Shown: positions 6,601-9,185 of the stretch, in pieces
How the letters are laid out: each line of letters opens with the position of its first letter
Numbering within the stretch: position 1 is the first letter of the stretch
Source of the DNA: Amoebidium appalachense
Taxonomy: Eukaryota; Protista; Ichthyosporea
NCBI GenBank assembly: GCA_963693365.1
Contig: CAVNZM010000007.1
Coordinates: 4,895,962 to 4,959,961 of the forward strand
DNA: 64,000 nucleotides
Direction of reading: 5' to 3'
The notes under the pieces: model-generated
Database searches by the model: none
What the model saw: only the letters and a program-made list of their open reading frames with translations
Told to the model about the DNA's origin: nothing
Program-made: the position numbers and the translations under genes

Positions 6601-9185
6601 TCTCTCTCTCTCTCTCTCTCTCTCTCTCTCTCTCTCTCTCTCTCTCTCTTTCTTTTTTTTTTTTTTTTTTTTTTTTGGCGCCTGTTGTTTTGCTTGTCAT
6701 TTGTTGTTCTGGTTGATTACCTGTAATCTTCGCTTATTTATGTGTGTGTGTGTGTGTGTGTGTGTGTGTGTATGTTGTGCGGGGTTGCACATACCGTTGT
6801 CTACTTTTCTTCTTACTGTTTTTCTCTCCACACACTTCATCTGTCCACTTCTGCATACCCCCTTTCATAGCTATAGACACACTTCACACATTGCGTTACG
6901 CGCACGCATGCACACACCGCTCTGTTGGCGACAGCTCCCTTGGAACCCATGCGGCATGTTACCCGCCGGCGTAACATAACTCGGACTATCGGTTTGGCTT
7001 TTTTCAAGCCCAAAGCAATGGGTGATACCATATTTCCGGCTGACATCCGGGGGCATAGCTTTCCGTTCGAAGACGTTAAAGTTCCGCCCTAGTAAGCGTG
7101 TTACTACCCTGCGGCGTGGGTCAAATCTCATATTTTCCCCTCTGATTGCGAATTCTGCGGCCTTCGGGACTTAACTTTTCAGCTGGTGTAGTATGTTAGC
7201 CAGGGAAGTATCGACTTAGGTATCGACGGGGGAGCTTCCTAGAAGCCCCGTCTCCTGAGTTCCTATCTATATTTTTCTTGCTTCTGCTTACTGCTGCAAC
7301 TTTAACCCCCGGCCTTTCCCACTGCCCTTGCCTGCATAAGCAACCCTGCTCGTCTCTGATCAAGACGGGTGACCTACTCATGTTCAAGTGAAACAGTATC
7401 TGAGTTGGGTTTCGTTAACGAGGGGAATAGGTCGAAACTTGGGTACTGTGGATGACGTGGGCCCCCCCTGAGGATGGGCTCTGCTTATTATGAATACTCT
7501 TTATGTATGGCTTGCATTCTGCATCGTGTTATACGTTTGTTCTTGTGTACTTCGTACTTTTTGACGCATTCAAACCCCCCCCCCCCCCCCCCCCCCCCCC
7601 CGCCCCTCGGTCTCCCTTTCTCTCCCCCTCTTCCCCTGCCCCCACCCCCTTCACCACCACCACCACCTCCATCCCCCATCCCCCGCACCCCCCTGGCACC
7701 CCCCCCCCCCCCCCCCCTTCCTCTTCCCGCCCCTCAAACACCACCAACATGACCACCAACACCACAGGCGACCAGCCTGGGGGCTTTATCCACTCCTCAC
7801 CGCCCGTAGTGCAAACCTAAACTAACAACACACAATGGGACATACACAAACACAACACCGCGCGTTTGTGCGGGCACACACAACACACACACACACACAC
7901 ACCCACACGCACACATGTGCAAGAGCACCCACACATTCACGCAACCAGACCTACAGCCACATCCACACACACACACACACACACACACACACACACACAC
8001 ACACACACACACACACACACACACACACACACACACACAGACACAGACATGCAGACACACACACACACACGTAAACACACAAACACACACACACACACAC
8101 ACACACACACACACACACACACACGTACACACACACACAGGATGCGCGGTTTGAGATGCAGCACTGCAACAGTGGGTTCATGACCTTCGTTGCCATGGAC
8201 AAGGCCACCCGTCACCCCCTGCCCCGTGCCCCAAGGTCTGAATATGTGTCGGGTATCCACATTGGTGATAGTAACGTTTGTGGGTGCACCTTCTAAAATA
8301 TGTTTGTACACCTGCTTGGGTTGGAGGGACGAAGGTGGAAAAGAGGCATGGAAAAGGGTTGGGGGTTGGAGGGGCGGGGCGGGACGGCGTCTATTTTTGG
8401 GGGGTTTTGGGGGGGTGGGTGGGAGAGGGCGGGAGTCAAAGGGTTGAGGGGGAGAGGGGGGGGGAGGGGGGGGGGGGGGGGGGGGATGGGGTGTTTGTAG
8501 GTGTCTGCGTACCAACAAAAGTTGAATAGAAAAAGGGGAGGGGGAGGGGAAGGGGCATCGGAGTGGGGGGTAGGGAGGGGGGATTTTCGGAGCCTGTGGG
8601 AAGGGGGAAGGTGTTTTTAATTTTTAGATATTATATATGGGTTTTTTGTTTTTGTTTTATTATTATTAGTATTGTTATGATTATTATCTACCCACAGGCG
8701 TGGCTGGGGTGAATACCCTGGGCAAAGTGTGTGCAAATAGTTAGGATTGTTTTAAGGTGTGTTAGCTTAGCTAATAATACCGTAGCACCCTAGCTAGAGT
8801 ACTGTCGGTGCTGGGTGGAAGACGGTAGTTCCCCCTGACGCGGGGTCCCTGCAGGAACAAAACGGGATAAAATAAAAAAGATTATGATTATTATTTTTTT
8901 TTTTTTTTTTTTTGGGGGGGGGGGGGGGGGGGGGGGGGGGGGGGGGGGGGGGGGGGCAAGGGGTGGGTTGGCTTTGTGTTGGCTAATCGTGGTGTATTTC
9001 TAATGACTGTTATGTGTGCAGCGGTTGCAAGCACCCCTATGGAAGGCGAGCTGCAAAAACAGGCACAGGCAAGAAAGGCTGCAAGGGAGGCAGCAGTGGC
9101 AAAGCTGACCCGGCCCGAAAACGACGTAACGGGGAAACTGGCCCGGCTCAACAGCATGGGCCCGGCAAGCTTTGACCCATTATGA
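652..9185 (+). CDS. Acyl-CoA thioesterase with tandem HotDog domains (ACOT7/ACOT11/12-like), 3' portion; 5' exons lie before the window
   Basis: GT-AG exons 652-725, 1235-1386, 2182-2321, 3202-3293, 4676-4833, 5704-5763, 8141-8235, 9022-9185(stop). Spliced peptide has HotDog motifs: CVTASVDAVHFLKPCFPGDIL, VNRAFRTSMEVGVRVE, SAYLTFVAL, VFPQHANSLGVTFGGQIMAWMEE, LASVDSLSFLGPTRIGD, GFMTFVAMD. Phases join except for one apparent extra base in the C5 run at 8215-8219. Confidence 0.88.
4535..4629 (+). mobile_element. Short 3'-end copy of intronic C-tract-terminated element family (family B)
   Basis: Shares GATGGGCTCTGCTTATTATG...TTCGTAC...CATTCTAA with copies at 7467-7575 and 51906-52040; flanked by C tracts. 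Confidence 0.65.
5941..6069 (+). mobile_element. 3'-end copy of family B element
   Basis: Long similarity to 51930-52040 (GCATACT...TGATGTTGC.TACTTGA...TTTGCATGTGTCCTGCACC...TCATCGT...GTACTTC...CATT), followed by C-rich sequence. Confidence 0.7.
6945..7575 (+). mobile_element. Longest family B copy: hairpin-rich non-coding insert in the thioesterase intron, ending at poly(C); 5' boundary approximate
   Basis: Non-repetitive, hairpin-rich sequence (ATGTTAC/GTAACAT, TTTGGCTT/AAGCCCAAA, GACGGGG/CCCCGTC) within microsatellite DNA; the 3' 240 nt are homologous to 51769-52040. Confidence 0.6.
7336..7488 (+). ncRNA. Predicted pseudoknotted multi-stem RNA (family B core), copy 1
   Basis: Stems ATAAGCA(7336)/TGCTTAT(7482), CTCGTCT(7349)/AGACGGG(7363), CAGTATCTGAGTT(7394)/AACTTGGGTACTG(7436), GGGCCC(7459)/GGGCTC(7476); pseudoknot GACCTACTC(7371)/GAATAGGTC(7425). 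G-U pairs favour the + strand. Confidence 0.55.
8688..8881 (+). mobile_element. Poly(A)-tailed retroposon (SINE or 5'-truncated LINE 3' end), family A
   Basis: 13-bp direct repeat TTATGATTATTAT at 8675-8687 and 8882-8894; ends AAACGGGATAAAATAAAAAA; shares GGAAGACGGTA...CCCTGA...AAACGGGATAAAATAAAA with 27634-28125. Confidence 0.75.

Follow-up and report, generated by a model that had tools for sequence, protein, structure and literature searches.

A predicted split-core, permuted hammerhead ribozyme at the end of a high-copy repeat of Amoebidium appalachense

A stretch of 64,000 nucleotides from the ichthyosporean Amoebidium appalachense was analyzed (assembly GCA_963693365.1, contig CAVNZM010000007.1, positions 4,895,962 to 4,959,961 of the forward strand), and the whole stretch is called "the window" in the following. 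An initial annotation had placed two copies of a pseudoknotted RNA motif on the + strand, at 7336-7488 (copy 1) and 51769-51927 (copy 2), and inspection of the sequence confirmed both positions. Each copy lies within a GT-AG intron in the sense direction of its host gene. The intron of copy 2 is flanked by two exons matching Vps53_N, and the intron of copy 1 belongs to a thioesterase-like gene, the upstream exon of which matches 4HBT, while the downstream exon is without a Pfam match. We consider it likely that the motif is a self-cleaving hammerhead with a non-circularly permuted strand order and a core that is probably open between A9 and G10.1, and that it ends a very high-copy retroposed repeat, which is likely derived from a Penelope-like element of the Naiad/Chlamys type.

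Copies, insertion sites and abundance

Copies 1 and 2 were aligned over 304 bases with 69% identity (E 5e-23) and have an exact block of 22 nt in common, for which the chance expectation is 0.00. A profile of both was used to find further copies in the window; matches were kept at E <= 0.002, and two weaker ones (E 0.016 and 0.53) were set aside. The annotated pair turned out to be real but not isolated, as four additional, 5'-truncated copies were detected (Table 1). All six copies lie in introns of host genes in the sense direction. C tracts are more frequent than G tracts on the sense strand of the host genes (20 to 8 and 24 to 15), and, therefore, the six sense copies do not prove an orientation bias.

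A C-rich tract is present 3' of all six copies, and a C-rich or pyrimidine tract was found 5' of five; the element of copy 1 starts upstream of 6790, at a position that is not exactly fixed. The 3' end of the element varies among the six copies, with the general form CATT(C/T)NA. Insertion at C tracts and frequent 5' truncation (four of the six copies), i.e., Naiad/Chlamys-like traits, are both present.

The copy 1 region was matched in 20 of 24 listed sequencing runs with five organism codes, and 10,657 and 9,498 contigs fell on it in two DNA runs. The depth summed over the motif was 1.2-1.7 million in run X1, compared with 13-57 for the long contigs listed. These values point to many thousands of copies of the element, summed depth being no direct copy number. 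Head-to-tail joints were also observed, each in a single contig, in which the 3' end and its C tract run into the beginning of the element or into a point within it. They lead from 7575 to 7331 or 7346 in the copy 1 region and from 52005 or 52040 to 51643 in the copy 2 region. In addition, one contig of run X1 links a copy broken around 7435-7445 to short, telomere-like repeats of the TAGGG type. No loose contig ends at the predicted cut were found among the rows listed, which speaks neither for nor against cleavage.

Fold, core and paired changes

All helices named in the initial annotation can pair, i.e., the closing stem, CUCGUCU/AGACGGG, the long stem, the pseudoknot and the GGGCCC/GGGCUC hairpin. 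However, the set was incomplete, because two helices had been missed, one at 7378-7384/7454-7460, in competition with the GGGCCC hairpin at the latter's first two pairs, and one of 3 bp at 7407-7409/7465-7467. The annotation had also been unable to fit the motif to a hammerhead, but both copies contain the GUU cut triplet, GAAAC and CUGAnGA in this order, together with the pair G10.1-C11.1. The pseudoknot corresponds to stem II of a hammerhead and the long stem to stem III. The GAAA, the pairs A15.1-U16.1 and C15.2-G16.2, and an NUH triplet on stem III are present (7434-7438 with 7404-7406; stems of 12 bp and 8 bp), and stem I is formed by 3 bp between the bases following the cut and those preceding C3, with one pair changed on both sides.

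From 5' to 3', the strands are P1, P2, the 5' strand of stem II, the interaction helix, the stem III strand with GUU and the stem I strand, followed by the palindromic linker, the 3' strand of stem II with GAAAC, the return strands of stem III and of the interaction helix, stem I with CUGAGGA, and P1. The S-G-C order of blocks, the linker between stems I and II and the interaction helix are traits of type-SGC hammerheads. The words UGA and GAUGA, which may form a kink-turn-like internal loop, are kept in both subfamilies and, as judged by eye, in octopus records of Naiad elements. The linker of copy 1 contains a perfect 10-nt palindrome, compared with a background of 0.0012 per base, and in subfamily 2 the majority letters at 51850 and 51852 create one of different sequence, likewise perfect and of 10 nt (assembled by hand). 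Such subfamily-specific palindromes suggest pairing between copies, as has been proposed for other Penelope hammerheads in the available parts of two reports (PMC4209133, PMC6765202).

A strict descriptor, which was built after the motif had been seen, yielded one match in the window, versus one in 150 random sequences of 128 kb. With a relaxed version, copy 2 was matched as well, together with a weak site at 42912, and the 150 random sequences gave four matches. This weak site (42912-42977, +) has GUU, GAAAC, CUGAGGA and a stem I mismatch, is followed by a long C tract at a distance of about 120 nt, and may be a chance match or belong to another family. The folding energies were not unusual (z -0.09 and -1.36), as is to be expected where pseudoknots are not modelled, and, thus, support has to come from conservation and paired changes. 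HDV-like and twister ribozymes, pistol, telomerase RNA and box C/D snoRNA were considered and rejected, as their conserved letters or geometry do not fit. A core composed of CUG and an inserted P2 hairpin was dropped once CUGAGGA and the covarying stem I had been found downstream.

Copy 2 deviates from the core at two positions: 51910 is C in place of A6, and 51905 causes a mismatch in stem I. Its ribozyme is probably impaired, because a natural hammerhead core with A6C has low activity, according to the available part of the report (PMC3088659). The variants in the sequencing runs, which are contig-based, unphased and summed by depth, revealed that the family majority restores both positions, as the hammerhead model had predicted. 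In run X1 51910 is A in 99.6% and 51905 is C in 99.0% of the depth, and the same was seen in runs X6, X9 and X20. The defects had been expected to be private to copy 2 before the family variants were examined, but the prediction was written down only afterwards. Seven of the 18 listed variant rows that were scored for the motif of copy 2 are majority changes at paired positions, and all of them lead to Watson-Crick pairs. The same is true for the single such change in copy 1, for which three rows at 7459-7461 (<=0.3% in X1) were left out. The majority letters at 51814 and 51815, for example, give Watson-Crick pairs in the interaction helix.

Six pairs are changed on both sides, when copy 1, copy 2 and the family majority of copy 2 are compared. 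Three are in stem II (U-A/C-G, A-U/U-G and A-U/G-C), and one each is found in stem I (G-C/A-U, i.e., GGG/CCC versus GGA/UCC with the majority letter at 51905), in stem III (A-U/G-C) and in the interaction helix (U-G/A-U).

Table 1. Copies of the repeat in the window and predicted structural elements of copy 1
Feature	Position	Strand	Partner strand	Basis or remark
5'-truncated copy (end of core and tail) between C tracts	4528..4628	+		nhmmer E 1e-08
5'-truncated copy	5937..6069	+		nhmmer E 1.9e-14
Upstream body, same element as copy 1, high-copy	6790..7335	+		depth, contigs crossing the 5' edge; no Pfam match
Copy 1, predicted split-core permuted hammerhead, intact core letters	7336..7488	+		sole strict-descriptor match in the window
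P1, 5' strand	7336-7342	+	7482-7488	pairing
P1, probable extension (CCC with GGG)	7344-7346	+	7476-7478	analogy with Naiad records
P2 hairpin, directly 5' of G10.1	7348..7370	+		stem identical in both copies
Stem II, 5' strand, G10.1 = 7371	7371..7376	+	7428-7433	6 Watson-Crick pairs
Interaction helix, far ends of stems II and I	7378..7384	+	7454-7460	pairing
UGA of putative kink-turn-like internal loop	7389..7391	+	GAUGA, 7451-7455	words kept in both copies
Stem III, 5' strand, ends in GUU (7404-7406); predicted cut 7406/7407	7394..7406	+		pairing
Stem I, strand 1.x (GGG; GGA in subfamily 2)	7407..7409	+	7465-7467	pairing, family majority
Perfect 10-nt palindrome, stem I-stem II linker	7412..7421	+		sequence
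Stem II, 3' strand, with C11.1 (7433), GAAA (7434-7437) and stem III, 3' strand	7428..7448	+		sequence, pairing
Stem I, strand 2.x, and CUGAGGA core (7468-7474)	7465..7474	+		sequence, descriptor
3' tail of the element, then C tract	7489..7573	+		sequence
5'-truncated copy, starts at UCC-CUGAGGA	50831..50939	+		nhmmer E 1.5e-09
Copy 2 (subfamily 2), between two C tracts	51629..52039	+		motif 51769-51927, predicted cut 51841/51842
Decayed 5'-truncated copy	59361..59470	+		nhmmer E 0.002

Comparison with known ribozymes and proposed mechanism

The comparisons below draw on the available sections of the cited papers and supplements. Eckert et al. (2023, PMC10085705) defined the blocks C, G and S and validated the non-circular types SGC and CSG by in vitro cleavage, in ribozymes that share the stem I-II linker and the interaction helix with the present motif; type CSG was published from just two metagenome sequences. 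The motif agrees with type-SGC ribozymes (HRIMA-1 and its variants) in that the cut-site block comes first, the GAAA block second and CUGAnGA third, and in all core letters. In addition, one side of stem I is linked directly to one side of stem II, the other sides are joined by a helix, and this interaction helix is continuous with the far end of stem III. In contrast to type SGC, the 5' strand of stem II is located upstream of the cut-site block and not after CUGAnGA, where Eckert et al. assumed a break no longer than 1-2 nt, and the extra helices P1 and P2 are present at the break. Furthermore, the linker has 18 nt with a palindrome instead of about 3 nt, and the motif is genomic and eukaryotic, whereas type SGC stems almost only from metatranscriptomes. 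The motif is thus modelled as a predicted SGC architecture that has been reopened between A9 and G10.1.

Canonical hammerheads were reported to be lacking in Naiad elements and in most of the Chlamys type (Craig et al. 2021, PMC8557442). Eight Naiads carry half cores 35-50 nt apart in the 3' untranslated region (UTR), named 'HHR_half_core', and the available sections of the paper describe no fold. The supplement holds 54 Naiad records, of which those matching term searches were inspected by eye, with some headers assigned from the file order. The split wiring was found, with unrelated stem sequences, at the ends of eight consensus records, i.e., Bfor, Amil, Aacu (with mismatches), Anas, one Morbakka, one Darwinula, Obim and Ovul, the hosts being a ctenophore, cnidarians, an ostracod and octopuses. 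Stem II is GGCUCC/GGAGCC in Acropora and GACACC/GGUGUC in the octopus, and stem I is UAGGAU/AUCCUA and CUGCCC/GGGCAG, respectively. Eight other Naiad records (seven nematode, one probably spider; File S5) have, as judged by eye, an intact type-CSG form. Shared with Naiad elements are a location close to the 3' end, insertion at microsatellite-type sites, truncated 5' ends and a high copy number. In contrast, the host is an ichthyosporean and the flanks are (C)n, whereas Naiads have animal hosts and a (TA)n preference, and stem I has 3 bp, compared with 5-6 bp in most split Naiad records and 2 bp in the ctenophore record.

For Chlamys elements, (C)n targeting, 5' truncation and partial tandems (pseudo-LTRs) have been described (PMC8557442). 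The first two traits are matched here by the C-tract flanks and the truncated copies, and the third possibly by the head-to-tail joints, each seen in a single contig; protist hosts are a further common feature. A difference is that a few Chlamys records contain canonical type I hammerheads. Non-LTR retrozymes and minimal Penelope hammerheads (bioRxiv 10.64898/2026.07.22.740005; PMC4209133) are likewise short, non-coding and tied to Penelope elements, with tandem copies and palindromic loops, but they are circularly ordered type I ribozymes with the palindrome in loop III, not in a linker between stems I and II.

If the proposed reading is correct, the three hammerhead stems would assemble as in type-SGC ribozymes. 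P1 and P2 would stack and meet the core at the A9/G10.1 break, forming a near-perfect four-way junction; this junction and the preference for the CCC/GGG extension of P1 were deduced because, in the split Naiad records, A9 is immediately followed by P1 and G10.1 immediately preceded by P2. The kink-turn-like loop would bend the stem III arm back toward the interaction helix, and the RNA would be cut after GUU (7406/7407), generating a cyclic phosphate and a 5'-OH. The predicted cut is located about 167 nt inside the 3' end of the element, and genomic copies keep these 167 nt; therefore, the template would have been either uncut RNA or a cut-to-cut unit of a tandem transcript, perhaps circularised. 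A Penelope-type reverse transcriptase (RT)/endonuclease would act in trans and insert copies at C tracts, usually with 5' truncation. A new ribozyme, or an RT-recognition structure in a non-LTR 3' UTR, had been suggested before; the hammerhead core indicates that the idea of a ribozyme at the 3' end of a retroelement came close, and a role in RT recognition may exist on top of cleavage.

Alternatives, other window features and wider meaning

Several observations weigh against a split, self-cleaving hammerhead in a Penelope-derived repeat. Cleavage is a prediction from the sequence, and stem I has just 3 bp (4 are possible in subfamily 2). Energy minimisation favours the GGGCCC/GGGCUC hairpin over the interaction helix and over the P1 extension (-8.3 versus -4.8), and this hairpin would leave the core in an 11-nt loop. 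An A at 51810 breaks the sixth pair of stem II and makes up 3% in X1, 14% in X6, 55% in X20 and the sole contig in X9. The variants are unphased, and those at 7375/7429, 7457, 7465, 51904 and 51928 may stem from contigs of the other subfamily and, therefore, add nothing independent. As had been proposed, Rfam was searched, and the window had no match to a described family at gathering thresholds. In copy 2, the arm from GUU to GAAAC was matched weakly and in part by Hammerhead_3 (E 0.9; 16.9 of 48.5 bits), and weak matches to mir-981, CPEB3 (7071-7159, E 4.5) and others were judged to be due to chance. No Penelope-type RT or GIY-YIG frame is present among the 148 reading frames of the window. 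The split form was not seen by eye in the inspected parts of the Chlamys records, despite the Chlamys-like preference for C tracts. For a Penelope element of Anolis, the available part of the report states that insertion in vitro did not require cutting by the hammerhead and that no reads ended at the cut site (PMC11167929), and thus a slow or partly non-catalytic role is possible also here.

The last point speaks for an alternative, namely that the hammerhead-shaped fold is mainly a signal for binding or priming of the RT and is cut slowly or not at all in cells. The 167 nt retained past the predicted cut are in line with this, and the location of all six copies in sense introns as well, where fast cutting could harm the host. 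Penelope hammerheads are also slow in vitro, according to the available text of PMC4209133. However, the catalytic letters are held, including the A6 restored by the family majority, and the core is kept in Naiads from several phyla despite changing stems, which is the pattern expected for catalysis. We therefore regard a mainly non-catalytic signal as unlikely.

A second alternative retains catalysis but assumes an intact type-SGC hammerhead, in which stem II follows two nt after CUGAGGA and the upstream strand of the pseudoknot is an off-switch. Such a stem II can be drawn with a 2-nt insertion after A9, giving 4 bp for copy 1 and 6 bp for copy 2, and Eckert et al. permit insertions of one or two nt at this place (PMC10085705, available sections). 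An off-switch would also suit sense copies in host introns. Yet half of the pairs are G-U, and the upstream strand of stem II pairs more strongly than the downstream alternative (-8.8 versus -3.9 and -13.0 versus -10.8 kcal/mol). The downstream duplex has no change on both sides, compared with three for the upstream strand, and the bases past CUGAUGA are unable to form stem II in the Acropora, Morbakka and octopus records of Naiads, as judged by eye in the supplement. This makes the intact form improbable.

Third, the ribozyme might be correctly recognized but be part of the tail of a short or long interspersed nuclear element (SINE or LINE) unrelated to Penelope-like elements. No open reading frame ties the element to any clade, and 5' truncation is, to our knowledge, general to all target-primed retroelements. 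In contrast, among the records inspected the split wiring occurred in those of Naiads alone, and (C)n targeting has been reported for Chlamys elements in the accessible part of PMC8557442, so that an origin outside the Penelope-like elements is given a similarly low probability. Last, a guide-RNA scaffold of the TnpB/Fanzor (OMEGA) type at the right end of an IS200/IS605-like DNA element, which had also been put forward, is suggested just by the TTCAA-like end of two copies and the pseudoknot and is highly implausible, because the end varies among the six copies, the copies are 5'-truncated and flanked by C tracts, the conserved letters are those of a hammerhead, and TnpB, Fanzor and transposase domains are absent from the 148 reading frames of the window. 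The proposed check for an upstream RT or TnpB/Fanzor frame detected, within the window, only a Gypsy remnant.

This remnant is a broken Gypsy-like long terminal repeat (LTR) retrotransposon at 30990-34650 (-) with pieces of RT, RNase H and integrase. A second family of short repeats ending at C tracts was found on the + strand at 50946-51048, 53074-53182, 53208-53349 and 62187-62326, and CUGAUGA followed by UGGG at about 53190-53215 suggests a truncated core of a related element. Long self-complementary stretches resembling miniature inverted-repeat transposable elements are located at 51179-51359 (about 180 nt, 81%, in a VPS53 intron), 24928-25033 and 22932-22994. An intronless DnaJ gene (10593-11726, -) and a frame with a BAG domain (11935-12882, +) are arranged head to head about 200 nt apart, i.e., two Hsp70 co-chaperones in an intron-rich genome. 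Among the matches with a species name, the best one for this DnaJ protein was from Sphaeroforma arctica, which makes an ichthyosporean host probable on the basis of a single protein. An exact look-up of two host proteins gave no match. An uninterrupted frame of 348 codons without a Pfam match is present at 21767-22813 (+).

In the literature searched, with subscription papers mostly outside the search, neither a split core nor permuted Naiad hammerheads were found to be described, and nothing relevant turned up on Penelope elements in ichthyosporeans. Pattern scans for additional copies gave no match in viral contigs and none in metagenome contigs. What is new is the non-animal host, the flanking C tracts, the palindrome in the linker and the testing of the split-core model against variation in the family. 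A more far-reaching scenario is offered tentatively, as possible rather than probable: an active hammerhead that is broken at A9/G10.1 and closed by a four-way junction could be the ancestral ribozyme of Naiads, predating animals and alternating with the intact CSG form. In the present genome it would occur in tens of thousands of mostly sense intronic copies, and the palindromic linker would pair neighbours, so that tandem transcripts would be cut preferentially.

Taken together, a split core would mean that the hammerhead tolerates a chain break at a place where the scheme of six permutations assumes none, and a seventh natural wiring would be added. This would explain why descriptor and Rfam searches missed the motif and why Naiad elements were reported to lack hammerheads, and would provide a genomic home for non-circularly permuted hammerheads, which are known almost only from metatranscriptome contigs. 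The question is directly testable with an RNA of 150 nt and a predicted cut site. With so many intronic copies in sense orientation, it is also to be asked how the host manages splicing, and the ichthyosporean host carries the motif beyond animals.

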